Source: Eubacteriales bacterium OttesenSCG-928-K08
GTDB lineage: Bacteria > Bacillota > Clostridia > Christensenellales > CAG-138
DNA: 64,000 nucleotides
Reading direction: 5' to 3'
Assembly (NCBI GenBank): GCA_030266105.1
Contig: JAJDHH010000005.1
Span: 961 to 64,960, forward strand
Position numbers and translations under genes: made by a program. Position 1 is the first letter of the stretch. Every line of letters starts with the position of its first letter. The notes under the pieces are model-generated. The model did no database searches and had not been told where the DNA came from. It saw only the letters and a list, made by a program, of their open reading frames with translations. Shown in pieces: positions 1,869-17,207 of the stretch.

Positions 1869-4800
1869 GTACACCGCAAACGAGATGGTGCCACCCAGCA
1901 GAGCGATGCCCAGCATGGCGATCCACACGATGACCATATTGTCGTCGCTTGTCTGTGGTACCGGCTTTGTGGGCTGCGTGGGCGCAGGCGGTGTGGGCTG
2001 TGGCGTTTTGGGTTCATCGGGCACACGCTTATCGACATTCACCGCCTGGGCCGCATCGTTGATGTCTGCATGCACGGCAATCTCCACGCCATCGATTTCC
2101 AGGCTTTCAAACACAACGAGGGTCCTGCCTGCGATGGCCCTGGAATCAAAAGTAAAGCGCACTTCCACAGTGCCGGAAGATGCGGTTGGTGTGAAGGTGG
2201 TTTCAGCCGTCACTGCCTTGCCGTCCTTAGTCAGCGGCTGACCGCTCTGTTTGTCCATCAGCACGCCCTTTAGTACATATTTCTGGCCGGGAACAAGGCC
2301 CTCATAGGACACGGCATCCACCACAGTAACGCTCTCGGCGATGGGAATGGTCTTGCTTCCGTTCTCCGTTTTGGCACTGGTGCCAATCTTGGGATCGATG
2401 AAGGTCACGGTCTGGCCCTCGTCCTCAATGTCGACATGGGTGGCGATCTCTTTCTCCTCTAAATACAGGGTTTCAAATACGACCACTGCCTTGCCTTTCA
2501 GGGCAGAGGAATCAAAGGTGAACGCCATCGGAATGCTGCCCGTGTCGGCGGGCGCATGGAAGATGACCTCGGCAGTTACGGTTTCGCCGCCGACCAGCAG
2601 CGGTTCGCCTGTCTCTTTGTCCATGAGGATGCCACGAACGGTGTACTCCTGGCCGGCCTTCAAGCCGCTGTAGTAAACGGTGTCAATGATGGTGGTCTTT
2701 TCGGATGCGTATGCGTTGCCGTCGCCCGTGTCCTGATCGCGGGCGGTGGTGAATATCTCGGGCACCACGATATGGTCGTTGGTGAGGGTACCCAAATCAA
2801 TGACGGTGTTGTGTCGGTAAACGGATACCTCAAAGCTGAGAAGCTCGTACCCTTTGTTGGCCTCGCAAGGCAGCTCCTCAATGAGATAGGTGTCATAGAG
2901 CAGCGCGCCCAACTCATCGTTGAGTGTTTCTGGCTGCCCGAACCAGATGCCATCCCGGTCGGTCTCGCCGCGGTTGGTGTTCTGGCTGTGCGGATTCCAG
3001 CTTGAAGCGGTGCTAAATTCGCCATTGATATCCGTTACGATGACATGGCTTTCGCCGGTGGTGACCGACGTGATGGCAAACGGCACGTTCGCCAGCCGCT
3101 TTGCGTCGCCATCCGAGATTTTGACGCCTTTAAGATCGCCGCGGATGGGGTTGTTCTTGATCGCCTTATCCGAGGTGTTCAGCACAACGGTTACACCGTG
3201 TTCGCGGATTTCAAAGGTGCGGTTCAGCACGCCCGTGGCCAAGTAGCCCCTGGGCGGCGATACCTCCCGCACCTCGTAAGTGCCGTAGGGCAGCAGCTCG
3301 CTAGGTGTTTGCGCCGTGCCAGTGCTGTCCGTCTCAAAGGTATAGACCACCTCGCCGACCTCATACAGCACATCCTGCACCAGCACGCTGTCTGCGCTGC
3401 GATTGACGATCTCAAAGATAGCGCCCTCCAGAGTGGCGCCGCCCTGCGGCCTGTGCGCGTCAATCTCATTGTCCCATTTTTCCACCCGCACGCCGCCGCG
3501 GATGATATTGTTCTTAATCACGGTCTCGCTGGCTTTCAGGTCGACGATGACGCCCTCCTCCCGGATTTGGAAGGACTGCCGGATGATCCCGGTGTTCAGG
3601 TATCCCGTGGGAGGCGTTTTTTCGATTATTTCATAGCTGCCGTAAGGGAGCAAGTTGCTCTCGGCACCCGCCCAGCCGTCCGCATCGGTGGTCATGGTAT
3701 ACACCACCGCGCCCGGCGCGTACTCGGTGCCCTCCACCACAACGCTGTGGGCGCTGCGGTTCCAGATTTCCAGCACCGCACCCTCAAGCGTGGCGTCGCC
3801 CTGCTTCAAAACGCGCTCGTCCCGCTCAATATCCCATTTTTCGATCTCCACGCCGCCACGGATCACATTGTTCTTGATGGTGGTGGCGCTAGTTTTTAAG
3901 CTGACAATGATGCCCTGATCCCGGATGGCAAAGGACTGCCGGATAACGCCGGTGTTCAGGTAGCCTGTGGGCGGTGTTTTTTCGACGATCTCATACTCGC
4001 CGTAGGGCAGCAAATCGTTGGCCGTCGCAGCTGCTCCTGCCTCGTCGGTGGTCATGGTATGCACCACTTCGCCCGGCGCGTAGGTCTTTCCGTTCACAAC
4101 AACGCTGTTCGCGCTGCGGTTGTAGATTTCAGGTTCGCTCCCGGCAAGCGTAGCGTCACCCTGGGGGGCAGCCCTGCGGTTCAGGTCAAAATCCCATTTT
4201 TCAATGGCTACGCCACCGCGAATCACCTTGTCTGGCACAATGGGCTGGTTGTATGTCCTGACGGATTCTGCAGTGCCCTGCGAAGTGATTTGTCGGATAA
4301 AAAGCTCGTTGTTGATGAGATAGCCTGTGGGCGGCTTGGTTTCCTGAATGGTCACCGTGCCCAGCGGCAGGGTTGGGTCGCCATTCCCTGCGTAGTAGAA
4401 AGCGTCGCCGGACACAAGGTAATCGGGGTGCAGGTACGCCGTGCCGTTGGCCCCGGTTTTGAGCACCCACGTTCTGTCCGGGGTGCGACCGGAAAGCTGG
4501 TCTGCGGAATACAGCCCCTTGTAGTATTTGACGGTGAACTCCGCACCCGCCAGCATCGCGCCACCCTGGGGCACAGCGGCAGCGGTCTCCGCGTCCTGCT
4601 TGCGAAGGATGATGCCCACAGGGTCGTTCTGCGGCAGGTCGCTCACCTGTACGGTCACGGTCTGGCCGGACACAATAGTGAAGGAAATCCGCGAGGTGTT
4701 CAACGCAAATCCCTTCGGCGGTGTCACCTCAACAAGATAGTAGCCCGATCCTGCCGGAAGGTCTTCCAGCCGCCCCCAGCCATTGGCGTCGGTGGTGATG

Positions 4801-4943
4801 GAGCCGACCTTCTGATTGCTACCATCGTAGACATCAAATACGGCGCCCGCCAGGGAATAGCAGGGGTTGTTGTTCGACATCGCCGGGTTGCTGGAAACCT
4901 TTTGAATCTCCAGATGCCCGGTGGGGTTGTAGTTCCATCCCAC
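1134..4943 (-). CDS. surface adhesin stalk (SpaA/Cna-B-type repeats plus two VaFE-type repeats plus sorting signal) reading through into the sortase fragment
   Basis: 1269-aa ORF with a GTG start. It has repeated modules ending TPPTGYLNTG..IKNN. Two repeats carry VVVFETLY / LVVFESLE. Then come a Pro-rich linker, VPQTSDD, and a hydrophobic stretch MVIVWIAMLGIALLGGTISFAVY. There is no signal peptide at the ORF start. Confidence 0.7.
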   Translation of the reverse strand: MGWNYNPTGHLEIQKVSSNPAMSNNNPCYSLAGAVFDVYDGSNQKVGSITTDANGWGRLEDLPAGSGYYLVEVTPPKGFALNTSRISFTIVSGQTVTVQVSDLPQNDPVGIILRKQDAETAAAVPQGGAMLAGAEFTVKYYKGLYSADQLSGRTPDRTWVLKTGANGTAYLHPDYLVSGDAFYYAGNGDPTLPLGTVTIQETKPPTGYLINNELFIRQITSQGTAESVRTYNQPIVPDKVIRGGVAIEKWDFDLNRRAAPQGDATLAGSEPEIYNRSANSVVVNGKTYAPGEVVHTMTTDEAGAAATANDLLPYGEYEIVEKTPPTGYLNTGVIRQSFAIRDQGIIVSLKTSATTIKNNVIRGGVEIEKWDIERDERVLKQGDATLEGAVLEIWNRSAHSVVVEGTEYAPGAVVYTMTTDADGWAGAESNLLPYGSYEIIEKTPPTGYLNTGIIRQSFQIREEGVIVDLKASETVIKNNIIRGGVRVEKWDNEIDAHRPQGGATLEGAIFEIVNRSADSVLVQDVLYEVGEVVYTFETDSTGTAQTPSELLPYGTYEVREVSPPRGYLATGVLNRTFEIREHGVTVVLNTSDKAIKNNPIRGDLKGVKISDGDAKRLANVPFAITSVTTGESHVIVTDINGEFSTASSWNPHSQNTNRGETDRDGIWFGQPETLNDELGALLYDTYLIEELPCEANKGYELLSFEVSVYRHNTVIDLGTLTNDHIVVPEIFTTARDQDTGDGNAYASEKTTIIDTVYYSGLKAGQEYTVRGILMDKETGEPLLVGGETVTAEVIFHAPADTGSIPMAFTFDSSALKGKAVVVFETLYLEEKEIATHVDIEDEGQTVTFIDPKIGTSAKTENGSKTIPIAESVTVVDAVSYEGLVPGQKYVLKGVLMDKQSGQPLTKDGKAVTAETTFTPTASSGTVEVRFTFDSRAIAGRTLVVFESLEIDGVEIAVHADINDAAQAVNVDKRVPDEPKTPQPTPPAPTQPTKPVPQTSDDNMVIVWIAMLGIALLGGTISFAVYMHLRKKKGKRRMVAAVSLALCVALIAASGYMLAQEARQYTEGANAYDKLAEFVGSPQPQDGADAQDGRDSDGQVNVSMQTDGAAPAAPSRLPVVDFDTLLETNPDIRAWLVCEDTGINYPVAQAEDNSYYLKRLYDGTRNKAGCLFIDYENDPFTDRNTIIYGHNLLDGSMFSELIGYQEQAYFDAHPDLLMATSDGGYIVEVFAAFVASPGEAGGSTSPWLISWEDDAAYSAWLESMQSRANG
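3100..4260 (-). repeat. tandem ~360-bp coding repeats (3 clear copies plus a degenerate one) encoding the SpaA-type stalk modules
   Basis: The motif (a/g)tcccatttt recurs at 3471, 3831 and 4191, an exact 360-nt period. The protein modules VIRGGV(A/E)IEKWD...TPPTGYLNTG...IKNN repeat accordingly. Confidence 0.75.
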
Positions 4944-4949
4944 GAAGCT

Positions 4950-6362
4950 CTACGTCGCGCCATCCGCCTCGTTGTAGACAAACGCCTCAAAACCATCGGG
5001 CGGCATGGGCTGTGCGCAGACCGACGCATACACCCCCATCAGGTGCTGCACAACAGAGGGACTGACTCTATAGAACGCCTCTGATGCGTTTCCACTGTAT
5101 GCATAGGCCGCGGCCAAATGGCTGTATGCGTAGGCCAGCAGCGAATCGGGGTCGTCGAACAAATTGTGCTTGACGGAATCGTAGCCGGGGCCGCCATAGA
5201 GGTAGTACGCACACTTAATCAGCGCATCGTCCACACCCGGCTGAAGATAGCGGCTGACAGGGTATGTGCCCGTTGGGGCGCTCGGCACGGACGGTTGCAG
5301 GCAGAACGCCGTGTTGCCGTTCGCGGTAAAATAGTGGGTGTAGTATCCGTAATATATCTGGTCGTCGCTGCGTGTGTGGGCCACCTGGCCGCCGGAATTG
5401 CGGGTGCGCAGCATCGCCTGGGTATAGGCCACGACCGTTAGGTCGCCACCCAGTGGTGAGGTGGATACATGCAGAGTCCCGTCCGAATAGCTGTAAGCGT
5501 CTGCGGGAAGCTCAATGCCGTTTTGTGACACGACCAGGGAGTCCGCAGAAGCAAGCGGTATGCTGATGCTGGCTACGTTTGACGGCAGGCGCAACTCGCT
5601 GGTGGATGTGGTAAACCGGCCGTTTTCAAAAGCGCAGACCGTTGCCTTTACAGGCAGTTCCACAGCCTCTGACGCAGGGCAATACCACTCGACCGTAACC
5701 GAATGCCCCATGTAGTCCTGCGGCAGTGAAACCATGCCGGTCGCTGCATCGTAAAATGCCAGCGCGGTGATGTCCTCACTGTCGTTCAGCAGCACACGAA
5801 AGCGCATGGCATCCGTACTGACCGGCACGATGCCGGGGAACTTGTTTGCCGAAATGGTGATGTTTTTGCCATCCGCCAGTGCCAGGGCGTAGAACGAATG
5901 GGTGGATGCCAGCGTATAGGCTGCATATTCCACAATCACCTGTTCAGGGCTGTCGGCGTAATAGTGGTAATCCACCCGCACCAAAGGCTTATCCACCACT
6001 TTCACCAGTTCCGGCTTCACCGAAGTAATGGGAGCGGGGTGCGTAGGTGTAGGCTCAAAGACGGGCGGCACGCTCTCCGCTGGTTCCTCCTCGGTAGGCG
6101 GTGTGCTTTCCACTGGCTCTTCCGATGCAGGCGGCGGTGTGTTTTCCGCAGGTTCGCCGAGATCAGGCTCAATCGGCCCGCTGTCGTCCGGCACGGAACT
6201 ACCGTCCGGTGGTACCGGAGATGTTTCATCGGGAAATGACTCAGTTTGATTGATGATGCCTGTATCCGTTGTGTCCTCTGCCAGCGCGGTCACAGGCAGA
6301 ATGGACAGGCACATCATCAAAACAAGCATGATCCCAAGAATACGCTTGAATCGCTTTCTCAT
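4950..6362 (-). CDS. adhesin head: signal peptide, Pro-rich linker, putative thioester-type adhesive domain
   Basis: ATG at 6362 follows AAGGAGG. Signal peptide is MRKRFKRILGIMLVLMMCLSILPVTALA. A PE-rich linker follows. The C-terminal domain has NGNTAFCLQPSVPSAPTG and YYLYGGPGYD. It ends at TAG 4950-4952, in the same frame as the stalk ORF. Confidence 0.65.
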   Translation of the reverse strand: MRKRFKRILGIMLVLMMCLSILPVTALAEDTTDTGIINQTESFPDETSPVPPDGSSVPDDSGPIEPDLGEPAENTPPPASEEPVESTPPTEEEPAESVPPVFEPTPTHPAPITSVKPELVKVVDKPLVRVDYHYYADSPEQVIVEYAAYTLASTHSFYALALADGKNITISANKFPGIVPVSTDAMRFRVLLNDSEDITALAFYDAATGMVSLPQDYMGHSVTVEWYCPASEAVELPVKATVCAFENGRFTTSTSELRLPSNVASISIPLASADSLVVSQNGIELPADAYSYSDGTLHVSTSPLGGDLTVVAYTQAMLRTRNSGGQVAHTRSDDQIYYGYYTHYFTANGNTAFCLQPSVPSAPTGTYPVSRYLQPGVDDALIKCAYYLYGGPGYDSVKHNLFDDPDSLLAYAYSHLAAAYAYSGNASEAFYRVSPSVVQHLMGVYASVCAQPMPPDGFEAFVYNEADGAT

Positions 6363-6384
6363 GTGGTCCTCCTTAAAAAATGGC

Positions 6385-6422
6385 AGTAAAAAGCCCCGCA
6401 TATCGCTTTGATATACGGGGCT
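6385..6422 (-). terminator. intrinsic terminator after the Pro-rich membrane protein gene
   Basis: Minus strand reads agccccgtatatc-aaag-gatatgcggggct followed by TTTTT. The two arms have one position that does not pair. Confidence 0.55.
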
Positions 6423-6460
6423 GTGGGTTATGATGCGCAAAGGCATATTTGAAAACAGGG

Positions 6461-7021
6461 TCACTCCACGCGGTAGCTGAAATCCTCTCCGTTCAGGAGA
6501 TGCCCATCGCCATGCGCTGGCACATTTCCTGTGATATCCGCACCGCAGGTGTTGCAGATCGTCCGGGTTTGCGGTGGTGGTGGATCGGGAAGCACCGACT
6601 CGGGTTCCGGTTCGGGTGCTGGCGGTTGTGCAGGCGGTGGCGTGGGTTCAGGTGCAGGTGTGGGTGGCGGCGCTTGCTCTGGCTGGGTTATGGGCGCGGG
6701 CGTTGATGGAGCCGCGGGTGGATTACCGCCGCCCGTGTTGCCTTGCGGCGTAGCGGTGGCCTGTGAACCGCCATCCTGTCCATCCTGCTTAGAACTGTCC
6801 GTCGAGTCCGGGTGTATCGTTGATGCGGGAGAAGGCGATATGATCGTCGGGGCCATGCTTTCAGATGGTGTTGAAGATATGGCTGCGCTCTGTTCGGGCA
6901 TGGGCTCCGATGGTGGGGCTTCCTCCTGCTTCTGTGCACCGCAGGACCTTGCCAGTAAAGCGATGACCAGGCCCAGGGTAATCAAAATCGCTACAGACGC
7001 CACCGTCTTCTTTTTTTGCAT
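6461..7021 (-). CDS. membrane-anchored proline-rich protein with small C-terminal CxxC..HxxxH module
   Basis: ATG at 7021 follows GGGAGGA. N-terminus is MQKKKTVASVAILITLGLVIALLA (signal anchor). A long P/T/S/A-rich region follows, then ICNTCGADITGNVPAHGDGH at the C-terminus. Confidence 0.5.
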   Translation of the reverse strand: MQKKKTVASVAILITLGLVIALLARSCGAQKQEEAPPSEPMPEQSAAISSTPSESMAPTIISPSPASTIHPDSTDSSKQDGQDGGSQATATPQGNTGGGNPPAAPSTPAPITQPEQAPPPTPAPEPTPPPAQPPAPEPEPESVLPDPPPPQTRTICNTCGADITGNVPAHGDGHLLNGEDFSYRVE

Positions 7022-7044
7022 GCCGCATCCTCCCATCAACCAGA

Positions 7045-7230
7045 CTATTGCATTGGTTGTGGCATTGTAGCTTGCGTTTTACTCGTTGTCAAATGGTTCT
7101 TCATCTGTCCCATCAACATCGCGTGAGTAATAGGTATAGTGATTTGCGCGGAGTCATAGTTGCGCTCATCCCCGGCACTTGTGCCGGTTGGTGCAATCGA
7201 GTCCCAAAATCCGCTGTATTCTTTGGCCAT
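7045..7230 (-). CDS. hypothetical small protein (61 aa) downstream of tail genes
   Basis: ORF with AGAGGTGAG 5 nt upstream of the ATG. No recognisable motif. Confidence 0.3.
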   Translation of the reverse strand: MAKEYSGFWDSIAPTGTSAGDERNYDSAQITIPITHAMLMGQMKNHLTTSKTQATMPQPMQ

Positions 7231-7234
7231 AAGC

Positions 7235-8413
7235 TCACCTCTTTTTATTTAGCTCTGTTATACGATCCGCTAACGTAAGACTGTTTGATCCAACAACCGC
7301 CTCCACATTGATGCGCCCGCGCTCATATATCTCGCGCACCAGAGTGATGCGTGTATCCAACAGCAGCCGCTTACCCAGCACATCCATGACCACAGTGACT
7401 ATATCCCCAAGATCCCAATCCACGCCGTAAACAAAAGAGCCGGTGGGAATTATCTCCCCCTCCAGCCCTTGGATCAACTTACGGGTATCTTTGTGTTTGT
7501 GCAATCCTTCAAAATATAATTTCTCCGGATCGTCTACATTCCCGGCTGATATCCACGCCTCACGGCGATCCCAGCCTGCTATTGGATCCTCCAGCTGATT
7601 GCCCTCATCATCCATGTAGGCGGTAAGCACCAGCTGATCCTCATCCTCACCAGCACCACCGATATACGGGGCATTGGTATACTCGCTTTTATCGTAGGTA
7701 TAGCGATTGCTGATAATATTGTCCATGGCGGGCGTAAAAATCACCGGACTGTTGCCATCGGTATTTGTGGTAGTTTTATCCCTGCCGGGCACCACCACAA
7801 ATACCATGCGTTTATTTTTCTCGTCCAGCCGGATATCCCAGCCCATGCCCGTCCATTCGCCGATCTCGGCAAATACCTCGTGCAGCTTTTCGTTATGCTG
7901 GCACTGCCATGGTGTAATAATTCCACGCGGGGGATCCGCAATATCATCCAACACAATCCCCGGAAGCCTGCGGTTATCGTCCACCGGTGCTATCATGTGC
8001 CGTGCGGCATAGTGCCTATATACATCTTCGGCGGTGCCCTGCACGCGATCCCACCCCAGTGCATTCGGATCCTCCGTTTGCGTGGGCGGCACGATGATCC
8101 TAAGCCGCGCTGCGCCTTTTAGCATGAACCCTGATACTGTGATATTATCTGTGTTACGATCATCATCCGCTTGTATTTTGCGTATGATACCCGCCCGAGC
8201 ATCGCTCATGCCCATGCAAATAATACGTCCCTCGGCCAGCTTATCCGCATCCATTGCCTGTTCAGGGAGTACAAGAGTAAACTTTCCAACGCCCCAGTGG
8301 CTGCGTTCAAATGTAAACGATGTGTATTTTGGTATCAAGCCGACTTGCGTCAGGTTCGTGTCCAACACAAATAAATCCCTGTTTTTAGGGACGCGCCCAT
8401 ATACATCGTACAT
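7235..8413 (-). CDS. tail protein (Gp37-like / Tal N-terminal-type baseplate hub)
   Basis: Sits immediately after Dit. N-terminus MYDVYGRVPKNRDLFVLDTNLTQVGLIPKYTSFTFERSHWGVGKFTLVLP resembles siphovirus Gp37-like proteins, judged from memory of the family. Confidence 0.6.
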   Translation of the reverse strand: MYDVYGRVPKNRDLFVLDTNLTQVGLIPKYTSFTFERSHWGVGKFTLVLPEQAMDADKLAEGRIICMGMSDARAGIIRKIQADDDRNTDNITVSGFMLKGAARLRIIVPPTQTEDPNALGWDRVQGTAEDVYRHYAARHMIAPVDDNRRLPGIVLDDIADPPRGIITPWQCQHNEKLHEVFAEIGEWTGMGWDIRLDEKNKRMVFVVVPGRDKTTTNTDGNSPVIFTPAMDNIISNRYTYDKSEYTNAPYIGGAGEDEDQLVLTAYMDDEGNQLEDPIAGWDRREAWISAGNVDDPEKLYFEGLHKHKDTRKLIQGLEGEIIPTGSFVYGVDWDLGDIVTVVMDVLGKRLLLDTRITLVREIYERGRINVEAVVGSNSLTLADRITELNKKR

Positions 8414-8415
8414 AT

Positions 8416-9312
8416 CTACACCCCAGCAAACGCACTTGACCAGCGCAGGATAACTGTGGCGTGCTTCATATCATCCTGCCCGGGTTCATATTGTATATCA
8501 TTCACGCCGGGCGCAAGGCTCCAAAAGTTAAATGTAGCGTCTGTTATACCCGATAGTTTATCCAGCTCTTTTGTTATTTCGCCCGTAATTTCGTTATGCT
8601 TTTCTACCGTTTTTTGCTCGGGTTCGGTGTTTATATAAAGCGTTTCATAGTCTCTTAAAGCTATGTTAAACGCCATATACTCACCTTTTAAAAGATTGCT
8701 GATTTTGGGGCGTATCGCTGGCCCATGTATCCAAATTTCAACCGGCGCGTCACTATCACCGATGTTGATGATATCTTTTCTGTACCCGCCTGATCCGAAA
8801 GTAACGCCCGGCGGGTAGATCGTAAACGGGAAACTAAAGCGCCCGGAACGGTATGCAACAATCTCCTCCTCGATCTTGCCGTTGGGCCGCCAGAGCGGAT
8901 CCGGGCAGTAAATAGTTAACGATATTGGCTTCATGTGCCCGTAGTCACTACGGTAAATCCGTGAATCTTCTTCTGGTGGGTCATTCACAATCCCCGAAAT
9001 GTAATAGCTGCCATAGTCGTTTGTGTATTCCACGCGTAAAAGTTCTTTGCCGCCAATCACAGCTTGCAGCTCCTGCAGACGCTCGTACATTTGGTACTGC
9101 GTTGCACCGTATACGTAGCCTGAAAAATCTAACTCACGCGGCTCGTAATACGCCTCATGTAACGTTTCCCCATCCTGTTTTGCACCTTGCGTAGTCAGCA
9201 TAAAAACCTCTGGCTTGCCTGTATACTGGAGGTTATTAAATACGTAAGGCGTCGGTTTCTCCAAATTAAAAAGAACCTCACCGCGCGAGGAAACAAACTT
9301 CAAATTTCTCAA
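8416..9312 (-). CDS. distal tail protein (Dit, siphovirus tail family)
   Basis: Sits directly after the tape measure. 298 aa, ending ..ATVILRWSSAFAGV, which is typical of Sipho_tail proteins. Confidence 0.7.
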   Translation of the reverse strand: MRNLKFVSSRGEVLFNLEKPTPYVFNNLQYTGKPEVFMLTTQGAKQDGETLHEAYYEPRELDFSGYVYGATQYQMYERLQELQAVIGGKELLRVEYTNDYGSYYISGIVNDPPEEDSRIYRSDYGHMKPISLTIYCPDPLWRPNGKIEEEIVAYRSGRFSFPFTIYPPGVTFGSGGYRKDIINIGDSDAPVEIWIHGPAIRPKISNLLKGEYMAFNIALRDYETLYINTEPEQKTVEKHNEITGEITKELDKLSGITDATFNFWSLAPGVNDIQYEPGQDDMKHATVILRWSSAFAGV

Positions 9313-9323
9313 CCTTTACCACC

Positions 9324-12300
9324 TCAAATCATACTTGCAAGTTTCTCCGATTCCCTTCTAAGTGCCTGTGCTACCTGATAAGTGCTAGGGGTAGGGCTTT
9401 GAATAACCACGGTCTGATCAACCTTCACAGAACGAGCTGGCGTTAAATTTTCAGTGGTTTGTACGTTGTTATAGCCAAAAGCGTTAGAGTTATTATCAAA
9501 ATCGGCGAGTGCATACTCTTTCATGCCGGCCTTTCCTGCTCGGTCTGCATAATACCTACGTGCGGGTTCGGTCACATGTTGAGCAAAAGCAGCAAAGGTA
9601 TCGGTAACAGGCGTATAGCGATCTGATCCGTCCCCTCCACTCCCACTTCCTCCGGGGTTGCCTCCTGCCATAATGCGCGCGATTTCTGCGGCTGCATCTT
9701 TTGCCGCTTGGATCATGGCATCCAGTTTGACCTTTAGCCCATCATACAAATTCTGCCCGAGTGCAGATCCGGCTAGCAAGTAATCCTGATTGTAGCTTTT
9801 CAGCAGTTCTATGATTTCCTCCTCACTGGCGTTTTGCAGCATATATTCCGCTTCATGATAGAGACGCTGCTTATTCAAGCGTTCGGCATAATAAGCTTGG
9901 ACAGATGCAATTCGTTCGCGTAAAATCTCAACTTCCTTGTCTGCCCGCGCTTGGATCAACGCAATTTCACTCTTTGTTTCATCGCGTATGAGAGAAATTT
10001 GATCGTTCAGTTCTTCCTTTTGATCCTGAATGCCCTCGCGCCAGTGACGTTCTTCCATTTCCTTCTCAAGTTGCGCTATTTGTTCCTGCAACTTTTGCTG
10101 GTTATAGAGGTCTTTCTCGTATTTGAGCTGCTCCTTAAGGTGGGCGAGTTTGTCCTCATCCGCTTCGTCCTGATTGGCACGAGTGCGTGCCTTAAGAAGA
10201 TCATCCAAGGCTCGTATTTCGTCTTGTATGGCTTTTATACGCTCGTCAGCGGCAGCCTGCACAGCTGCGGTCTGTTTCTTGGCTGCAGCCTGTACAGCAC
10301 TTATTTGGGCATTCAGAGCATTGACCTGCGCATCCAACTCGGCTTGGTACCGGTTCCGCAGAGCGTCCACAACAGCATTTCCAAAATCCTGATATGACGC
10401 CAACGCTTGCTGCTGATATTGATATTTCGCTTCGAAAAGTTTGCGCTCAATCTCAAGGCGTTGGTCTGCTGTGAGTTTCTCTGCCCGCAGGAGGTTTTCG
10501 AGAAACGAAATGTAACTGTCGTTAAGCTCTGCTGTAACACCTTGTTTTGCATAGCCAAGCTCCTTTTCAAGGCGCTTTCGCTGCTCTGCGGACACGTTTT
10601 CCAACGACAGCAGGTATTCGATATGTGCAACGTATTCGTCGGTATACTCCGCCTCGACATCACGGACGCGCTCGATCAGTGCCAGTTCTTCCTCCCATGC
10701 CTTTTTGCGTGAGCTACCGCCGTCTGAGCGTTTGCCTCCTCCTTCATCAAAGAGCCCTGCTTCACGCAACTTCCCAAGCAACTCTGTAATTTCATCGGCT
10801 GTCAGAGAGGCAGTTTCACCCGTAAGAATCATCTCGGCTATTGCTTCCTTTAACTCACCTGAAAGTGAGCCGGCAGCGGCCGCTGCCCCCTCGCCCATTG
10901 CGTTTGCAAAGCTCTCAATAGAGCCATAAGCCGCTTCAATCTCATCACGTGTAAGACCGGTAACCCGCTTCAGCCTTTCACTCGACTGCGTATATTCATC
11001 GCTACCTTTTTTCGCGTTTCCAAACTCATCTGCAATTTTCTTGGCGGCCTTCGATACGCTGTCTAATTTTAGCGCCTGTTCAGCCTGTTTACTAAAATCA
11101 ACTTTAGTTGCGTTCTCAAGCTTTTCCGTGAACTCATCCACAGAAACGCCCGCAGTCTCAAGAATTTCTCCTATTGCCCCGAAAGAGTTTGTAAGCAGTT
11201 CGTGAACAGCTGCTTCTCCGCTTGTCAACGCCTCTTTATTTTGCTCCATGAAATTTTGCAGCCTATCCTGCACAATAAGCGTCTGCTCACCAGTCAGCTC
11301 CACGGTAGCAGTGTATTGATCGATTATATTTGCAATTGCGTTGTCGCGATATTCTTCCCAGAGAGACTCTGCCTCGTCAAGCTTGACCTGTAGGTCGTCG
11401 ATTGCATTCTGATCAATAAGGTCAAACCCCAAGCCTCCGCCTTTTTGAATTGTACCCACGCCCAGTTCGCCAACAGTTTTTTTATACTCATCCATCTGTT
11501 TGGTGAGTTTTTCCACATCTTTAGCGGCATCTATTGCCGCCTTTGCCTCTTCTTCGAACAATGTTTTTGCCTTGTTTGCTTGCCTTTGGCGTGCTTTTCG
11601 GTCGGCCTCGTCCATCTTTTTGATATATAGATCGATAGTTTCTGTTGTAACGATAACAGCCTCACCCTCTTCGTTGATACCTTTTATAAGGTCCGGGTAG
11701 GTGTTGACTAATTTCTGTTGTGCCGCCGTCAGCTCATCTGCACTGGCCGTAGCACTGGTGTATGTTGCAAACGCTGCCTTGGCTTGTGTGAGCTTTTCAG
11801 TGGACGCTTGCAAGGCGTCCCTTTGCTCGTGTAATAGTTCGATCTGTTCCACTATAAACTTGTTGAGATCCTCAACAGAGCCTGTAATAAGCTTTATTGC
11901 CGCCATAGCAGCGCTTATGCCAATAATCCAAGGACTTATGCCTGCGCTTATCGCGTAGATAGACTGTCCCATCGTTGAGATAGCACCGGATAGGCTGCTG
12001 TTGCCCCCGGCGAGCTGTGCGGCAGTAGAGGCGGCTTGCGCGCCCATAGACGTCATTGTACGGCTAACGCGTTGCCCCGCAGGGTCCATTAACGACATTT
12101 TATCCGTTAAATCATTAAGCGTACCCTCCAACCGTTTCATTTCTGGTGTCTCCGCCGCGATTTGTTGCTGTACCTCTATAAGCCTCTGGTTGGCTTGTAT
12201 TCTCTTTTCAATGCCTGCTGTGCCGCTTTGAATAATTGCTTCAAGCTTCGTCTCCTCATTCATTAGCTTCAAAATCTTCTCTGCCTGGCGATCATATTGC

Positions 12301-12845
12301 AAAGACGCCTGTTGCAACTTCTGAGCAATACTGTCATACACCTGTTGGGAAACCTTAAGCTTCTCCACAGCCTGATCCATTGTTGAACCGACTGTCCCCA
12401 CCTGCTGTGAGGTTTTGGCCGCGGCATTACCAGTAGCCGTCATCGTACTGCCAGTCTTTTTGATGGCGGGCTCAGCTTCACCAAACTTATCGCTAAGGCG
12501 ATTAAGCTCAGTCTCAAGCTGCTTCATTTTAGGCGTTTCGGCAGCGATTTGTTTTTGAACGGAAAACAACTCTTGAGAAGCTTTTGCACGCTGCAGCGTA
12601 CTGGTTGTGGAGTTTTTAAGAACTGCCTCCAGCTCACTCTCTTGCTTTGTCAGCGCCAGCAACTTTTCGGCCTGCTGGTCATACTCTTGAGATAATTTTC
12701 GCAACTCAGCTTCAAGCTTGCTAATCTCTTGCTGTGTAGTTTTAACCGTTCGCGTAGTCTGCCCTAACGCATCGCTAAACTGACCCGCCCCGGTAGTAGC
12801 ACCGGAAGCGTCTACGCCAAGTTGAAACTCTAGTTTTTCGTCCAT
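9324..12845 (-). CDS. tail tape measure protein
   Basis: About 1170 aa, heavily coiled-coil, with an internal ~130-aa duplication (..QIAAETP(K/E)MK(Q/R)LE..) and a Gly-rich tract near the C-terminus. ATG at 12845 follows AAAGGA and lies downstream of a terminator hairpin. Confidence 0.85.
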   Translation of the reverse strand: MDEKLEFQLGVDASGATTGAGQFSDALGQTTRTVKTTQQEISKLEAELRKLSQEYDQQAEKLLALTKQESELEAVLKNSTTSTLQRAKASQELFSVQKQIAAETPKMKQLETELNRLSDKFGEAEPAIKKTGSTMTATGNAAAKTSQQVGTVGSTMDQAVEKLKVSQQVYDSIAQKLQQASLQYDRQAEKILKLMNEETKLEAIIQSGTAGIEKRIQANQRLIEVQQQIAAETPEMKRLEGTLNDLTDKMSLMDPAGQRVSRTMTSMGAQAASTAAQLAGGNSSLSGAISTMGQSIYAISAGISPWIIGISAAMAAIKLITGSVEDLNKFIVEQIELLHEQRDALQASTEKLTQAKAAFATYTSATASADELTAAQQKLVNTYPDLIKGINEEGEAVIVTTETIDLYIKKMDEADRKARQRQANKAKTLFEEEAKAAIDAAKDVEKLTKQMDEYKKTVGELGVGTIQKGGGLGFDLIDQNAIDDLQVKLDEAESLWEEYRDNAIANIIDQYTATVELTGEQTLIVQDRLQNFMEQNKEALTSGEAAVHELLTNSFGAIGEILETAGVSVDEFTEKLENATKVDFSKQAEQALKLDSVSKAAKKIADEFGNAKKGSDEYTQSSERLKRVTGLTRDEIEAAYGSIESFANAMGEGAAAAAGSLSGELKEAIAEMILTGETASLTADEITELLGKLREAGLFDEGGGKRSDGGSSRKKAWEEELALIERVRDVEAEYTDEYVAHIEYLLSLENVSAEQRKRLEKELGYAKQGVTAELNDSYISFLENLLRAEKLTADQRLEIERKLFEAKYQYQQQALASYQDFGNAVVDALRNRYQAELDAQVNALNAQISAVQAAAKKQTAAVQAAADERIKAIQDEIRALDDLLKARTRANQDEADEDKLAHLKEQLKYEKDLYNQQKLQEQIAQLEKEMEERHWREGIQDQKEELNDQISLIRDETKSEIALIQARADKEVEILRERIASVQAYYAERLNKQRLYHEAEYMLQNASEEEIIELLKSYNQDYLLAGSALGQNLYDGLKVKLDAMIQAAKDAAAEIARIMAGGNPGGSGSGGDGSDRYTPVTDTFAAFAQHVTEPARRYYADRAGKAGMKEYALADFDNNSNAFGYNNVQTTENLTPARSVKVDQTVVIQSPTPSTYQVAQALRRESEKLASMI

Positions 12846-12867
12846 GTGGGCATCCTTTCTGTGCATA

Positions 12868-12897
12868 ACAAAACCGCCCCGAAAGGCGGTTTTGTTT
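12868..12897 (-). terminator. intrinsic terminator after the BRO gene, just before the tape measure gene
   Basis: Minus strand reads aaaaccgcc-tttcgg-ggcggtttt followed by gtt. Confidence 0.6.
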
Positions 12898-12904
12898 TAA
12901 TGCT

Positions 12905-13702
12905 CTATGCAATCTTATATTTTTTTCGCATATTCTGCGGCCAATTGTCCGTATTGGTTAGAATTTCTTTCAAACGACCATATCCGGCTGCGTTATACCG
13001 AAACGTGTCAACCTGCCCATCACTGTGCTTCTTCTTATCAAGCACAACCTGTCCATACTTCTCAATCTTCACCCCGAAAGCGTTCGCGGTTCTCCCAACC
13101 CAGTTTTCCGTAAAATACAGGTTATGAATACCTAAATTCGCACCGATATCCTCACCAAGCCGCTTTGCCACATCTCCTGTCGTCATGAGCGGCTCAGTGA
13201 GTGTAGGGCGGAAAGGAAGCGTCTTTCCCGTGATGAACTCATGAGTATTAAGTAGGATCAGCTCGCGCGCTTCTTCAGACAGCGCCTTGTGGTTAGCAAT
13301 CTGCAGGAGCAGCCTGCCCTCTCGCACACGGCTGTTGCGTTCCTGCACCTCCATGCGTTTCACGGAAAGGTCGGTAGGCTGCGGGACGGAATATTGACCT
13401 GTTTTGCGAATAGCTGGGATTACATCATGAGTGATCCATCGTTTGAACGCCTTAGCCTCCGGCTTGCGGCTACCGAGCACGAGAGCGTAAAGGCCGGGTT
13501 CGTTGACGATATTCGTTTCTCCCTGACGCCCTAAGTTGAACTTAGCCCGTTCATCTTCTTCCAACCCAGTTACTGCCATGGTTACATTACTATGCTCCAG
13601 CGCCCTGCACACATCAGCCGCGACAAACCACGGTTCGCCATTTTTCTCAATCACGCGAACTTCGCCAAACTGCGAATTGTTAAATACTTGCAATTTATTC
13701 AT
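12905..13702 (-). CDS. BRO-N domain phage antirepressor
   Basis: N-terminus MNKLQVFNNSQFGEVRVIEKNGEPWFVAADVCRALEHSN...GLYALVLGSRKPEAKAFKRWITHDVIPAIRKTG is a textbook BRO-N domain. Confidence 0.8.
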   Translation of the reverse strand: MNKLQVFNNSQFGEVRVIEKNGEPWFVAADVCRALEHSNVTMAVTGLEEDERAKFNLGRQGETNIVNEPGLYALVLGSRKPEAKAFKRWITHDVIPAIRKTGQYSVPQPTDLSVKRMEVQERNSRVREGRLLLQIANHKALSEEARELILLNTHEFITGKTLPFRPTLTEPLMTTGDVAKRLGEDIGANLGIHNLYFTENWVGRTANAFGVKIEKYGQVVLDKKKHSDGQVDTFRYNAAGYGRLKEILTNTDNWPQNMRKKYKIA

Positions 13703-13941
13703 GCCGCTGCCTCCTTGCCCTTAGCCCGTTCCGCATTGTTAATCTCGATCCTCACTTTACCAACGGCGTTCATCGCCTCTGTCAGATAGTTTATAGCCGT
13801 GCTGATTAAGGTTTCTTCCTTAAATCCATGATTCTTCACATTTTCCAGATTTTCCAAGTCCGCTATTGTCTCCAGAAGATTTCTGGCCTGGAACAACGCA
13901 GTTTCGCTCTTTATTAGTATGGTTCCATGTTCTGATTGCAT
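13699..13941 (-). CDS. hypothetical 80-aa protein, translationally coupled (ATGA) to the BRO gene
   Basis: ATG at 13941 follows GGAGGT. Its stop overlaps the BRO start codon. Confidence 0.4.
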   Translation of the reverse strand: MQSEHGTILIKSETALFQARNLLETIADLENLENVKNHGFKEETLISTAINYLTEAMNAVGKVRIEINNAERAKGKEAAA

Positions 13942-14059
13942 AAAAAATACCTCCATAAAATAATCTTGTTTGAGGTATCTCTGATGTGGTATAATAATTT
14001 CACAGGCAGAGATGCCTCCGAGTAAGAGATATTAGGTGTGGCCGTCAAACTACAACCTT

Positions 14060-14365
14060 CTATCTCTTTTCTTCTGTTGATGTCCCATCGGGATCTTCGT
14101 CGTCTACTGGCGTAGCACCTAAAATTCGTAATGCGGCGACCGCGTCCTCCAATTCATATTGCAATGTTTGAATTTGTTCTTGAGTTTTCATCATTTCTTG
14201 ACGCATATCCCTTAATCCAGATCCTAGCCCCTCCGCATTACTGTTTTCCAGTAGCCGTACAATAAACTGGTTTTTGCTTATTTTCTCTTTTTCAGCCCCC
14301 CTTTCCAACATTTCGTGTTGCTCTGGTGTTAATCTAAGTGTGAATGTTCTTATCTTTTCCTCGAT
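14060..14365 (-). CDS. ribbon-helix-helix (CopG/Arc/MetJ-like) DNA-binding protein, probable non-AUG start
   Basis: The frame is open from the TAA just before AGGAGG. It reads RRWRTIEEKIRTFTLRLTPEQHEMLERGAEKEKISKNQFIVRLLE, an RHH beta-strand plus two helices. The first ATG (14311) would delete the strand. ATC at 14365 lies 9 nt after AGGAGG. Confidence 0.55.
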   Translation of the reverse strand: MEEKIRTFTLRLTPEQHEMLERGAEKEKISKNQFIVRLLENSNAEGLGSGLRDMRQEMMKTQEQIQTLQYELEDAVAALRILGATPVDDEDPDGTSTEEKR

Positions 14366-14408
14366 TGTTCGCCACCTCCTTTATGACTTCATTTTTGACG
14401 CTATGTCT

Positions 14409-14437
14409 ATAATAAATGGCTTCGTCTACGAAGTCAA
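14409..14437 (-). promoter_or_regulatory. sigma-70-type promoter TTGACT-N17-TATTAT with embedded palindrome cttcgtAGacgaag
   Basis: Read on the minus strand. The palindrome at 14420-14433 sits in the spacer and is a likely autoregulatory operator for the RHH protein. Confidence 0.5.
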
Positions 14438-14862
14438 GTGCTTTTTTTCATAAATATTTGCTCATACTGCGCTCGCGTAATTAATATTTCCAGTGGCTTA
14501 CTGCTGTCGAAGCCGCCTATATAACCGCGCTTCTCCATAATATTTACCAATTGTGCCAATCGCGCGTAACCAACACGCAGCCCAATCTGCAATATAGAAA
14601 ATGACACTTGGCCGCATTCCATCACTATGCGCATCGCATCACCTAACAGATCGTCTTCCATTTCCCCGCTATCGACGCTCGTCTCTACCCGTGGTTCCAA
14701 TTCAGGCAGGACATTATCGTCGGGAAAGTCCATTTTTTTGCGCCGTCGCATCTCAAGCCGCTCCAAATAAGCGAGGCGCTTTTCTAATCCGAAAACCCGC
14801 ATTTCAAGCTCTTCTACCAGCTCACGCAACTCTTTCTTTGTGCTATCCATTTGCTTCTCCAA
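14434..14862 (-). CDS. coiled-coil protein with stand-alone FtsK-gamma (winged-helix) domain
   Basis: C-terminus DDLLGDAMRIVMECGQVSFSILQIGLRVGYARLAQLVNIMEKRGYIGG matches the FtsK gamma pattern D.L...A...V.....S.S.LQ..L..GY.RA..L...ME..G. No motor domain is present. Confidence 0.6.
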   Translation of the reverse strand: MEKQMDSTKKELRELVEELEMRVFGLEKRLAYLERLEMRRRKKMDFPDDNVLPELEPRVETSVDSGEMEDDLLGDAMRIVMECGQVSFSILQIGLRVGYARLAQLVNIMEKRGYIGGFDSSKPLEILITRAQYEQIFMKKST

Positions 14863-15886
14863 AATACTCGCGCAGCACCTTAGCTCGTTTTTCTAGTTTA
14901 GGTGCCAATTCCTCTGGCTTTGGGTCCGTCCAAGTCAGCCCCCTCTTAGAAGTGGTGCATTTATTGCATGATTCATAATCTGCGTTCATTATTCTGCCGC
15001 AAGAACACTCCCACTTTTTGCCCGGCACCTTCCACTCAATAACTTCAGGAAATCCAGTTTTCATCAATTCAGCTAAACGTATTAACGTAGCTGCATCTTC
15101 TCTGCTATATTTAGCGGGCAAAACTTCGACAAGATGCAACCCTAGACGTTTCTTCTGCAAATCCGTATTCTTAAGTGCATTTTCTACCGCCGTAAGATTT
15201 CCAAGCCTATAGTTTTTCATCACACCAACTAGCTGTGTAAATGCCTGCTCTCCAACACTGGTCTGCGTAATCCTGTCAATAAACTTTGATGAAAGTTCAT
15301 TTTTGTCAAAAAGTGAAAAATATTGGTCTAGTTTGTCTTTGTTTTCAGCGCTCATAACCGTGAATGAACCGGTAACACCAGCCGACAATTCATCAATCAC
15401 GTTGTTTATGGCTTCTACCAACTCGTACTCGTATATTTTCTCCATGCTCATCAGAGCCTTGACGCTACCATTTTGTATCTGCTCTAAATAGTCGTTACGC
15501 GCAATCAAGTAATGAACGGCCTCTTCTGATATTTCGCCCGATGTGCTGTCCTCGGAAGACAATCCATTTATATACACGGCAGTCCCCGTCATTACTGCCA
15601 TAAACATTTGTTTGTTCTGACCTGATATTTCATCAAAGTCAACCCGAAGGCCGATTATCGCATTAGCCTTCATCTTTTTTGCCTTGCGTGTGAGTTTAGT
15701 TAATACTTCATTTTTCAGTGTGTCTAATTCATCTTGATATGCAGTTGAAAAACCAGAGAACCAATCGCCCCAACTCGCAGAAAGATCTGCCCAGAACCCC
15801 GTCCTTGCCACTGCGTTTGCAGTAACAACACCAATATATTCGGTTATCTCGTAATTTCCTATGCCGTTGGTAGTTGTTATTAACAT
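14843..15886 (-). CDS. YbjQ/DUF74-domain protein fused to a helical region and C-terminal zinc ribbon
   Basis: ATG at 15886 follows GGGAGG. MLITTTNGIGNYEITEYIGVVTANAV...ANAIIGLRVDFDEI...MAVMTGTAVYI matches the YbjQ family pattern. C-terminus has WECSCGRIMNADYESCNKC. The last 20 nt overlap the next gene. Confidence 0.6.
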   Translation of the reverse strand: MLITTTNGIGNYEITEYIGVVTANAVARTGFWADLSASWGDWFSGFSTAYQDELDTLKNEVLTKLTRKAKKMKANAIIGLRVDFDEISGQNKQMFMAVMTGTAVYINGLSSEDSTSGEISEEAVHYLIARNDYLEQIQNGSVKALMSMEKIYEYELVEAINNVIDELSAGVTGSFTVMSAENKDKLDQYFSLFDKNELSSKFIDRITQTSVGEQAFTQLVGVMKNYRLGNLTAVENALKNTDLQKKRLGLHLVEVLPAKYSREDAATLIRLAELMKTGFPEVIEWKVPGKKWECSCGRIMNADYESCNKCTTSKRGLTWTDPKPEELAPKLEKRAKVLREYFGEANG

Positions 15887-15972
15887 TCCGTACCCCTCCC
15901 GCTCATTTTCCCATAGTATACCAAAATGCACAGGACGTTACTACCTACTCATTTCCATTTCCAGTAATAGTT

Positions 15973-16571
15973 CTACACCACGTTCCCTACTGCGTTTCCA
16001 TCCTCGTCCACCAGCTCCCCCGGGTCTTTTCCTGTTGCTTGCCGATATCGCGCATCAATTATGGGCTCAAGCTCTTCCCAGTAATATTCGTTCAACTGTT
16101 GTTTGGAAATGCCTGAGGCTGAAAAATAAGCGAGCAGTTCTATTCGCTGGGCTTGTGCTGTTTTATGGCTTGCCCGATCATCTGGAGCATTGGCAAGCCT
16201 TTGGTAAAAAAATCTATAATTCCATTAACCTCAATAACCGCTACCAGCAGGTCAACTATGCCACCAATACCGATATTTTCCGAGGTTAAAATATTGTCTT
16301 CGTCCTGTTTCGTAAAGCGCGCGATAATAGATACTACCAAACGCACAAACGCCGTGCTGCTTAAAAGCAGCTGTTGTATAACGTCCTTTTGTCCGTCGCT
16401 TTTTAGCATGACCGCAATTTCCAACACGCCCATTCCAGGAAACACTGCATCGGCAGCGGCAGCTATTGCATCCTCACAAGCAAGGAATGCGTCCTCAAAA
16501 TCCAAGTAACCGAGACGCTTTACCTCAATACCGCATATCGTTACGCAGTTCGGTTTCTGTTTCGATCTCAT
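15973..16571 (-). CDS. tail assembly chaperone GT-type fusion product (via -1 frameshift at 16206-16212)
   Basis: After GAT TTT TTT the -1 frame stays open for 79 codons (YQRLANAPDDRASHKTAQAQRIELLAYFSASGISKQQLNEYYWEELEPIIDARYRQATGKDPGELVDEDGNAVGNVV*). It ends at TAG 15973-15975. Confidence 0.6.
16140..16571 (-). CDS. tail assembly chaperone (G-type)
   Basis: Sits immediately after the major tail protein. ATG at 16571 follows GGAGGG. 143 aa, acidic. Confidence 0.65.
   Translation of the reverse strand: MRSKQKPNCVTICGIEVKRLGYLDFEDAFLACEDAIAAAADAVFPGMGVLEIAVMLKSDGQKDVIQQLLLSSTAFVRLVVSIIARFTKQDEDNILTSENIGIGGIVDLLVAVIEVNGIIDFFTKGLPMLQMIGQAIKQHKPSE
16206..16212 (-). promoter_or_regulatory. slippery heptamer T_TTT_TTT for programmed -1 ribosomal frameshift
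   Basis: Zero-frame codons are GAT TTT TTT ACC near the 3' end of the chaperone ORF. Confidence 0.6.
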
Positions 16572-16607: not shown

Positions 16608-17207
16608 TTAACCTCCCGCCTCGCCGCTCTCAAACGAACTAAGCCATGTCTTCGCTGCAGTATCGTATGCGGCTACATCTTGCGCTTCATAACGCATCCC
16701 ATTTTTATTTTCTCCAAACTTGAAGTCGACATTATATGCGGACACCTTAACGGATCCGTCCGCTGTAGTAAGTTGCGTAGGCACTACAGCCTGCACCTCA
16801 CTTTTATAATGCTTGTGCAAACGATACCCGCCGGCGTTGCCTAGTTTAGTGACGTATGTTGCCGCAAAAGGCGGAACCGCCTCCGCGCTCACTGCACTAC
16901 CCTCGGAGTATATCCCCGTGTCTACGTCGTATTTTGCATTGTTTTTCAGGGTAGCAAGCGACGTCAAAGCCAGCTCCGCAATCGTCAAGCGCCGTGTTTC
17001 ATCGGTATCGCCCCCTGAGCTGGACAGATATTCCTCGTCGTCCGCGTACACAGGTGTACCTGTGCTGCCAGCCGTGTCGGGCGGGTCGAGAGACTGCACA
17101 TACGGCAATGAAATTGCCGTACTGACTTCGAAGCCGCCTGGCTCGTCGCTGGTAATGGGATAAACGGTAAAATCCTTAAACCCCACCAATCCTTTATCTT
17201 TACCCAT
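16608..17207 (-). CDS. major tail protein
   Basis: 199 aa, sitting between the tail-completion genes and the chaperone. N-terminus MGKDKGLVGFKDFTVYPITSD resembles phi13/TP901-type major tail proteins. Confidence 0.7.
   Translation of the reverse strand: MGKDKGLVGFKDFTVYPITSDEPGGFEVSTAISLPYVQSLDPPDTAGSTGTPVYADDEEYLSSSGGDTDETRRLTIAELALTSLATLKNNAKYDVDTGIYSEGSAVSAEAVPPFAATYVTKLGNAGGYRLHKHYKSEVQAVVPTQLTTADGSVKVSAYNVDFKFGENKNGMRYEAQDVAAYDTAAKTWLSSFESGEAGG

Follow-up and report, generated by a model that had tools for sequence, protein, structure and literature searches.

A probable composite moron island separating tail chaperone from tape measure in a defective Clostridia-type prophage

The first phage element to be named a "moron", gene 15 of HK97, lies in precisely the gap that separates the tail chaperone from the tape-measure gene, and its product is a superinfection-exclusion protein (Juhala et al. 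2000 and Cumby et al. 2012, as summarised in PMC3594210). The morons which that summary describes in the chaperone/tape-measure slot have a deviating GC content, a promoter of their own and a terminator of their own (PMC3594210). The present work concerns a block of five genes in the same slot in a 64,000-nucleotide (nt) stretch of DNA from Eubacteriales bacterium OttesenSCG-928-K08 (GenBank assembly GCA_030266105.1, contig JAJDHH010000005.1, positions 961 to 64,960), which is referred to below as the window. The block occupies positions 15972 to 12868 of the window, on the minus strand, within the late genes of a defective prophage, and encodes a YbjQ-zinc-ribbon protein, an FtsK-gamma protein, a putative ribbon-helix-helix (RHH) protein, a protein of 80 amino acids (aa) and a BRO/Ant antirepressor-family protein. 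An initial annotation, made from the sequence alone, had placed five genes in one orientation at precisely these positions. It held that chaperone and tape-measure genes are normally inseparable, and it proposed that the block is an independently expressed moron island whose composition is very different from that of its neighbours.

Like HK97 gene 15, the block occupies the slot next to the tape-measure gene and is extra DNA relative to related phages. HK97 carries one gene for a small inner-membrane protein in a Gram-negative lambdoid phage, whereas the window carries five genes for soluble proteins, mostly of DNA-binding type, in at least two units. There is no sequence relation between the two, the GC deviation of the block is weak, and its expression is predicted from sequence.

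The other closely comparable system is the "ant moron" (immI) of P22, a late-operon region whose gene content varies. It holds mnt and arc, which encode RHH repressors, together with sar for an antisense RNA and ant for the antirepressor, an RHH gene standing directly before ant (PMC2629481). Villafane, Casjens and co-workers note that the region may set how often late transcription runs on into the tailspike gene (PMC2629481). In the window, too, the cargo lies in a late operon and a putative RHH gene, suggested by a structural model, stands upstream of an antirepressor-family gene; the full order is a promoter-like site with a palindrome, the RHH gene, a small open reading frame (ORF), the Ant-family gene, a terminator and a tail gene. 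The P22 region precedes the tailspike gene of a podovirus, whereas the window block precedes the tape measure. The window protein is of the BRO-N type and lacks the P22 Ant domains, the 80-aa gene is additional, and the RHH protein differs in having a long C-terminal helix and a non-AUG start.

The block is best explained, with a probability of about 0.72 for the explanation as a whole, as a composite moron island that fills the hypervariable gap separating GT from the tape-measure gene in a prophage of Gram-positive (Clostridia-type) siphophage ancestry, made up of at least two units of which the second would be an RHH-autoregulated operon for an antirepressor-family protein. The arrangement is ordinary and only the cargo is unusual, because the gap is a known slot which is routinely used for swappable cargo in the lineage of this prophage. 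The block is thus an unusually large and regulator-rich case of a well-known element in its best-known position.

The slot in the window and in related phages

Searches for close relatives gave little. A megablast search of 9 kb against INPHARED found no relatives, tblastn with the major tail protein found nothing, and a word-based search of 5.8 billion proteins matched the major tail protein to itself only and the tape measure to distant proteins only; a full HMMER search against 1.84 billion representatives recovered relatives of the major tail protein at about 30% identity at best. An alignment of the major tail protein was dropped as a seed for the locus search because it was too divergent. 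Since no close relative had been found, the survey was anchored on the best conserved protein, the Gp37-like tail-tip protein, and covered 80 loci from genomes and 80 from viral contigs, each taken with 10-kb flanks. A script located the chaperone pairs with a -1 frameshift and the tape-measure genes, and doubtful cases were checked by hand; loci which the script had mis-called (L021, L025, L053, L063, L067 and others) were read by hand or dropped. The genome set together with three earlier loci yielded 50 evaluable modules, and the viral-contig set was classified in full for the members of the window's lineage.

The chaperone pair abuts the tape-measure gene, with a gap of no more than about 20 nt, in 37 of the 50 modules; accessory-like genes intervene in 11, and a conserved gene of about 120 aa in two. 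Adjacency is by these counts the commoner arrangement without being a universal one, and in the window's own lineage it is found in only 3 of 15 modules. The gene-order rule is weaker than has been assumed, the gap being the original moron site.

The window's lineage was defined by a homologous T extension of the form WLQ..IA...GISK.E.L.DYY.DE, together with a related major tail protein where one was detectable, and comprises the window and 14 distant relatives. Its frameshift sites are runs of T or of A. The uninterrupted junction which the initial annotation suggested looking for is found in three of the relatives, L107 (of which L106 is a duplicate), L114 and L128, all of them distant, with 4-9 nt between the T stop and the tape-measure ATG; in the window this distance is 3127 nt. 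The slot is occupied in the other 11 relatives, and so in 12 of the 15 modules with the window included, by unrelated cargo of 375-3286 nt and one to about nine genes. The same five genes are therefore not a universal part of the tail module. None of the cargo proteins of the lineage relatives is detectably similar to any of the window's five.

A hairpin followed by a T run lies within about 40 nt of the tape-measure start in 11 of the 12 occupied slots, including that of the window, and the empty slots leave no room for a terminator. The exception, L039, lacks a slot-closing terminator, and its last cargo gene faces the other way. The relatives with cargo (L023, L025, L029, L039, L042, L051, L078, L108, L122, L137 and L148) thus share with the window the G/GT family, the slot and, L039 apart, a terminator-like hairpin. 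They differ from it in mostly carrying membrane proteins or lipoproteins, of which the window cargo has none; L039 resembles the window in holding regulators in the slot. What is added to the description of morons is modest: a Clostridia-type lineage appears to use the slot as a general terminator-closed cargo site. The slot is for this reason a practical place to seek lysogen-expressed accessory, exclusion and defence genes in prophages of gut Firmicutes.

The nearest syntenic relative, L023, matches the window throughout the module (portal 40% identical, tail terminator 35%, Gp37 31%, Dit 30%, major tail protein 28%) and retains terminase, capsid and holin genes. Its slot is filled by just one gene, for a lipoprotein, which has a promoter-like site and is closed by a terminator. 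Further cargo is, to judge from the sequence, dispersed over its late operon: a Tad2-like gene (3845-4096) stands between those for MuF and scaffold, and one for an N6_N4 methyltransferase (7063-7770) is found among the head-tail connector genes. Lipoproteins are also the cargo of L108. The slots of L029 and L137 encode zinc-ribbon/transmembrane proteins, those of L042 and L051 transmembrane proteins, that of L122 a 231-aa zinc-ribbon protein and that of L025 a YspA/SLOG-like protein. L078 carries four genes, including DUF2513 (4003-4386, minus strand) and DUF1505, and L148 carries five, including DUF2513 (3320-3718, minus strand) and a SocA/Panacea antitoxin gene (4899-5711, 6.9e-15); the latter is preceded by a 109-aa ORF, with which it may form a toxin-antitoxin pair.

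The largest relative cargo, about nine genes over 3.3 kb (2271-5479), is that of L039, a prophage in a Clostridia metagenome-assembled genome from mouse gut. It includes a divergent pair of helix-turn-helix (HTH) genes, one CI-like (HTH_3, 5.6e-15, minus strand) and one Cro-like (HTH_26, 1.3e-10), with facing promoter-like sites that match at 11 of 12 positions, and it has the look of a complete switch region set within a tail operon. Two modules read in the course of the survey show further kinds of interruption. In L021 (PV036457) a reverse transcriptase gene lies between tail chaperone and tape measure, and in L030 (a Paenibacillus taichungensis prophage, 3159-9151) a 381-aa ORF of low GC content (4157-5302), which could be an insertion of the homing-endonuclease or intron type, interrupts the tape-measure gene.

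Borders, genes and signals of the block

The left border of the slot is the end of the chaperone pair G and GT (15973-16571 on the minus strand, G itself being 16571-16140), which was read from a three-frame translation. The pair has no Pfam or PHROG match, and it was recognised by a slippery heptamer, an open -1 frame, its place after the major tail gene and before the tape measure, and similarity to chaperones of other phages. The heptamer T_TTT_TTT lies at 16212-16206, where the zero frame reads GAT TTT TTT ACC, and the -1 frame stays open for 55 codons past the G stop; this T frame ends at 15973. The T extension in the window reads SGISKQQLNEYYWEE, the motif GISK..L.EYY.E being common to the extensions of the 14 relatives, and tblastn matches the G proteins of L106/L107 at 3e-5.

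The right border is a hairpin of the intrinsic-terminator type at 12897-12868 (minus strand), 22 nt ahead of the tape-measure ATG. Its 13-bp stem is preceded by an A tract and followed by a U tract, and its folding energy of -23.1 kcal/mol (z -5.8) was not attained by any of 200 shuffled sequences, which bears out the closing terminator that had been annotated here. A second terminator-like hairpin with a U run (16609-16588, -17.7 kcal/mol) stands directly after the major tail gene and before G, and internal terminators can on this account be regarded as normal in the tail operon; this second hairpin probably sets the ratio of tube to chaperone expression. L039 has a counterpart hairpin after its own major tail gene, at 1640-1661. 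Between the slot-closing hairpin and the tape-measure ATG, several lineage members have in common a leader of the form TTATGC.C..AAAG.GG, which is GTTATGCACAGAAAGGATG in the window (12845-12875) and TTTATGCGCAAAAAGAGGTG in L042 (about 5520-5560), and which lies just upstream of the tape-measure start in L078, L051 and L029. The ATG of the leader opens a mini-ORF of five codons ending in the ribosome-binding site (RBS) in L042, L078 and L051, and is in frame with the tape measure in the window; the leader may be due to chance or may be a conserved translational feature.

The first unit of the block begins with an 86-nt spacer (15887-15972) that contains the RBS GGGAGGGG and, at 15923-15915, the extended -10-like sequence TGgTATACT; the latter can be read in the sequence where the initial annotation had located it, and the promoter scan did not pick it up as a two-hexamer promoter. 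The YbjQ-zinc-ribbon gene follows (14843-15886, minus strand, 347 aa). Its product consists of an N-terminal YbjQ domain, a helical middle and a C-terminal zinc ribbon of the form CxC...CxxC. Pfam YbjQ_1 (PF01906, UPF0145) matches residues 16-120 of the listed 362-aa ORF at 8.7e-22 (78.1 bits against a cut-off of 23), and in the PDB the structures 2gtc and 1vr4 match at about 1e-11; the AlphaFold2 (AF2) model, with a mean confidence (pLDDT) of 45, was unusable. Pentameric structures of the YbjQ family have been solved, and to our knowledge no function has been established for it. In the collection of 5.8 billion proteins the combination of YbjQ domain and zinc ribbon has no full-length relative and one partial relative, P0008, which adjoins an AbiGi gene.

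The FtsK-gamma gene (14434-14850, minus strand, 138 aa) encodes an N-terminal coiled coil followed by the FtsK-gamma domain, which is a DNA-binding winged helix. Pfam FtsK_gamma (PF09397) matches residues 68-129 of the listed 142-aa ORF at 6.3e-17 (61.5 bits against a cut-off of 30.6), and the FtsK gamma structure 2ve8 matches at 1.6e-5. The ATG of the gene overlaps the YbjQ stop (ATGGATAG), and this overlap suggests that the two genes are translationally coupled. Matches to FtsK-gamma obtained by tblastn in records named "Bacteriophage sp." were rejected as a phage context, as they lead to full-length bacterial FtsK; one such record, MT835572.1 (L104), encodes a 972-aa cellular FtsK (3436-6354) beside housekeeping genes and is probably bacterial DNA mislabelled as phage.

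The second unit opens with the promoter-like site TTGACT-N17-TATTAT at 14437-14409, again located as annotated, which matches at 10 of 12 positions and is the best match on the minus strand. It sits in the 68-nt gap before the RBS of the RHH gene. Inside its spacer is the palindrome CTTCG-TAGA-CGAAG (14433-14420), which is weak as an RNA hairpin (-5.2 kcal/mol, z -0.9) and may serve the RHH protein as its operator.

The RHH gene (14060-14365, minus strand) would encode 101 aa if it started at ATC 14365. Its frame is open from a stop ahead of an AGGAGG, and no ATG, GTG or TTG occurs before the methionine codon at 14311, so that only the ATC, nine nt past the AGGAGG, would bring the DNA-binding beta-strand into the protein. 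In the single-sequence AF2 model (pLDDT 74) the N terminus is extended, and two short helices and then a long C-terminal one follow it; the Foldseek matches of the model are nearly all RHH proteins (Arc, CopG, NikA, AmrZ, TacA, AtaR, KacA) at non-significant E values of 0.3-2; the match to Arc has a probability of 0.94 and a root-mean-square deviation (rmsd) of 2.3, and that to CopG an rmsd of 1.2. The protein has no Pfam or PHROG match, and tblastn against phages returned nothing. The annotated RHH gene is therefore a tentative assignment: its model finds Arc, CopG, TacA and AtaR first, but the E values, the lack of an HMM match and the non-canonical start weaken it.

The ORF of 80 aa (13699-13941, minus strand) is present as annotated and encodes an acidic, probably helical protein with no Pfam, PHROG or PADLOC match. 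Its stop overlaps the start of the BRO gene (ATGA). In the spacer between the RHH gene and this ORF, a plus-strand promoter-like site that matches at 9 of 12 positions (13970-13998) points into the RHH gene from its 3' end, on the antisense strand. In this it is reminiscent of sar in P22 immI, although the match is weak, and it is the only sign of an antisense unit in the block.

The last gene (12905-13702, minus strand) encodes the 265-aa BRO-N/Ant-type protein, which matches Pfam Bro-N at 2.6e-23 and, over residues 1-256, the "anti-repressor Ant" family phrog_130 at 2.1e-50; relatives at 32-56% identity are present in many viral contigs. The domain matches of this protein and of the YbjQ and FtsK-gamma proteins confirm the domain families to which these three had been assigned, and PADLOC matches none of the five block proteins. 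A BRO-family gene 37% identical to that of the window occurs in L029 (11696-12244), downstream of the tail-tip gene and outside the slot; it is the only cross-match of any block protein to a relative.

The compositional argument of the initial annotation was based on two 60-nt segments, one in the block and one in the major tail gene, for which the counts of 20/60 and 39/60 GC are exact. These segments are unrepresentative of the block, whose GC content of 44.7% compares with 49.1% for the structural flanks and 47.1% for the host part of the window, and ranks at the 14.5th percentile among all windows of 3.1 kb. A mildly lower GC content is confined to the YbjQ (42.1%) and RHH (41.8%) genes; the FtsK-gamma (46.8%) and BRO (49.5%) genes do not stand out from their neighbours. 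Codon usage is not distinct either, the distance from block to structural genes being 0.654 against 0.710 +/- 0.083 in a null distribution generated from equally long chunks of structural genes, 71% of which are at least as distant as the block.

Interpretation and competing explanations

By the comparative definition, and as far as sequence can tell, the block is a moron: it is extra DNA between genes that are otherwise adjacent, in relatives at no more than 40% identity, and it ends in what reads as its own terminator. The annotated moron island therefore stands as regards the extra DNA, the empty or differently filled slots of the relatives and the terminator. The parts that fall away are the differing composition and the premise of inseparability, which is contradicted by HK97 gene 15 as well. 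Slot-closing terminators are to be expected if the cargo has a transcription of its own, which has to be kept from running into the tail genes.

The slot is used across the lineage, empty in some members and filled with non-homologous cargo in most, and in the proposed mechanism the terminators that nearly always close it would keep transcription of the cargo out of the tail genes. Because such a terminator stands before the tape measure, late transcription must read through it for the tape-measure and distal tail proteins to be made. The first unit (15886-14434) would be a coupled pair, possibly driven by the extended -10 candidate promoter at 15923-15915, and a role for it in a DNA-directed accessory function or in exclusion is only a guess. 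In the second unit (14437-12868) the RHH protein would autoregulate the promoter at 14437-14409 and thereby keep the antirepressor-family protein off. This control of the BRO gene would parallel that of Arc over Ant in the ant moron of P22, and the most evident candidate target of the BRO/Ant protein is the Cro/C1-type repressor of the prophage (25231-25665). The block may also be of some benefit to the host. The interest of the cargo lies in what may be an antirepressor-family operon under RHH control within a tail operon, which would be a Gram-positive counterpart of the ant moron, and in the orphan YbjQ-zinc-ribbon/FtsK-gamma pair.

Several results weigh against the composite moron island. 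The prophage is defective, so the block genes may be decaying leftovers, though none of the five frames is broken. The collections searched yielded no relative above about 40% protein identity, so that empty sites can be compared only across a wide evolutionary gap, and the insertion itself cannot be retraced. Neither composition nor codon usage carries a sign of foreign origin. The RHH assignment depends on a model whose Foldseek E values are non-significant, on an ATC start and on no profile match. In the BRO protein Pfam finds neither the P22 Ant domains (P22_AR) nor KilAC, and BRO-N proteins are labelled antirepressors mostly from the family name. The block contains no second, Mnt-like RHH gene, and its sole hint of a sar-like RNA is the weak plus-strand site at 13970-13998. 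Promoter-like matches of the sigma-70 type are at chance level in the region from 9 to 18 kb, 9 having been found against 11.0 +/- 3.4 in shuffled sequence, and since they are no denser than in shuffled sequence both promoters are candidates only.

This chance density of promoter-like sites is equally what would be seen if the five genes were accessory genes that lacked functional promoters and were expressed late, co-transcribed with the tail genes in lytic growth of the ancestral phage for roles such as host takeover or counter-defence, the terminator then serving only to tune the amount of tape-measure and distal tail mRNA. The genes do lie on the late-operon strand and share the codon usage of the structural genes, the hairpin at 16609-16588 makes internal terminators normal in this operon, and the P22 ant region has been reported to modulate read-through into the tailspike gene (PMC2629481). 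However, RHH-plus-antirepressor modules and the CI/Cro-like pair of L039 make little sense as purely late genes, the cargo of the relatives (lipoproteins, small membrane proteins, a Panacea antitoxin) is typical of lysogen-expressed genes, and the best promoter match of the region, with a palindrome in its spacer, is the one that precedes the RBS of the RHH gene; late expression alone is accordingly considered unlikely, though it deserves to be taken seriously. A defence or toxin-antitoxin role for one or both units, with the RHH protein as antitoxin or regulator, is given little credence. The antitoxins TacA, AtaR and KacA are among the best Foldseek matches of the RHH model, the slots of L078 and L148 hold DUF2513 and that of L148 the SocA/Panacea antitoxin, and the partial YbjQ relative has its AbiGi neighbour; the PADLOC search of the five proteins was nevertheless negative, and the gene next to that for the RHH protein has an acidic helical product, which does not resemble toxins of the GNAT, RelE or ParE kinds, and stands before a BRO/Ant-family gene. 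A toxin-antitoxin pair composed of the RHH protein and the 80-aa ORF was considered on its own and ranked low.

The decay of the prophage raises the further question of whether the block is a rearrangement scar, in which early-region genes (antirepressor, RHH regulator, DNA-binding proteins) were moved or fused into the tail module as capsid, terminase and replication genes were lost. Antirepressor genes are usually early-region genes, and losses are evident elsewhere in the prophage: the scaffold gene abuts the gene for a 164-aa protein, no terminase precedes the portal gene, to which an AAA_23 fragment is fused, and there are neither a lysis module nor att repeats. The borders of the block are clean, however, with GT intact to its stop and the tape-measure gene intact with its own RBS, and no breakpoint signatures such as truncated genes or repeats were seen at 15972 or 12868. 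The ending in a terminator and then the tape measure is that of the cargo of 10 relatives, intact relatives such as L023 also carry cargo in the slot, and deletions cannot place 3.1 kb in one orientation exactly between two adjacent genes, so that a scar is the least credible of the explanations considered. A bolder version of the composite island, which seems improbable, is that the slot serves specifically for the exchange of cassettes and that its right border, the terminator and the short leader after it, is under selection; the locus would then hold an immI-type switch that acts in trans and an orphan DNA-directed YbjQ/FtsK-gamma system. If this were so, the intact BRO/Ant protein of a defective element would target the Cro/C1-type repressors of resident or incoming phages, and the YbjQ-zinc-ribbon/FtsK-gamma pair would be a new two-gene system directed, for example, against FtsK/Xer-type DNA handling or against entering phage DNA.

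The prophage remnant

The element that carries the block is a defective prophage of about 21 kb (about 7.1-28.0 kb of the window). No terminase, major capsid or lysis genes were found in it within the window, and a search for direct repeats of the att type and for repeats on either side of the block was negative. In a remnant that lacks these three sets of genes, transcription in a lysogen without induction, which the initial annotation had offered as a test, is a notion of limited meaning. Among sequencing runs none was listed that holds the block, and the only ones found with a host gene are DNA runs of a partial relative. The reading frames that are still present are all intact, including the 1173-codon tape-measure gene and the five block genes.

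The late module lies on the minus strand and runs through genes for the portal (21974-20535), a MuF-type minor head protein, the scaffold (18787-18107), the 164-aa protein, which starts 12 nt later, a tail terminator and the 199-aa major tail protein (16608-17207, phrog_88 at 4e-10). It continues with chaperone G, the five extra genes, the tape measure (9324-12845, 1173 aa from ATG 12845, phrog_1533 at 2.5e-39), Dit (9312-8416) and the Sipho_Gp37-type tail-tip protein (8413-7235). The N terminus of the tape measure, MDEKLEF, resembles the MDRDELVF and MDYEVERLVF of L114 and L128. In L023 a Phage_capsid gene and two more genes lie between the scaffold gene and the homologue of the 164-aa gene.

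The early region is short and ends in the AAA_23 fragment, a 336-aa AAA_23/SbcC-like piece (22969-21959) that overlaps the portal start, where a terminase gene would precede. The Cro/C1-type repressor gene (25231-25665) matches HTH_26 at 4.6e-10, the integrase gene lies at 26929-28023, and host genes begin at 28479. Adjoining the other end of the prophage is a SpaA/TQ-domain adhesin region (1001-7000) with a GC content of about 58%, compared with about 47% in the rest of the window.

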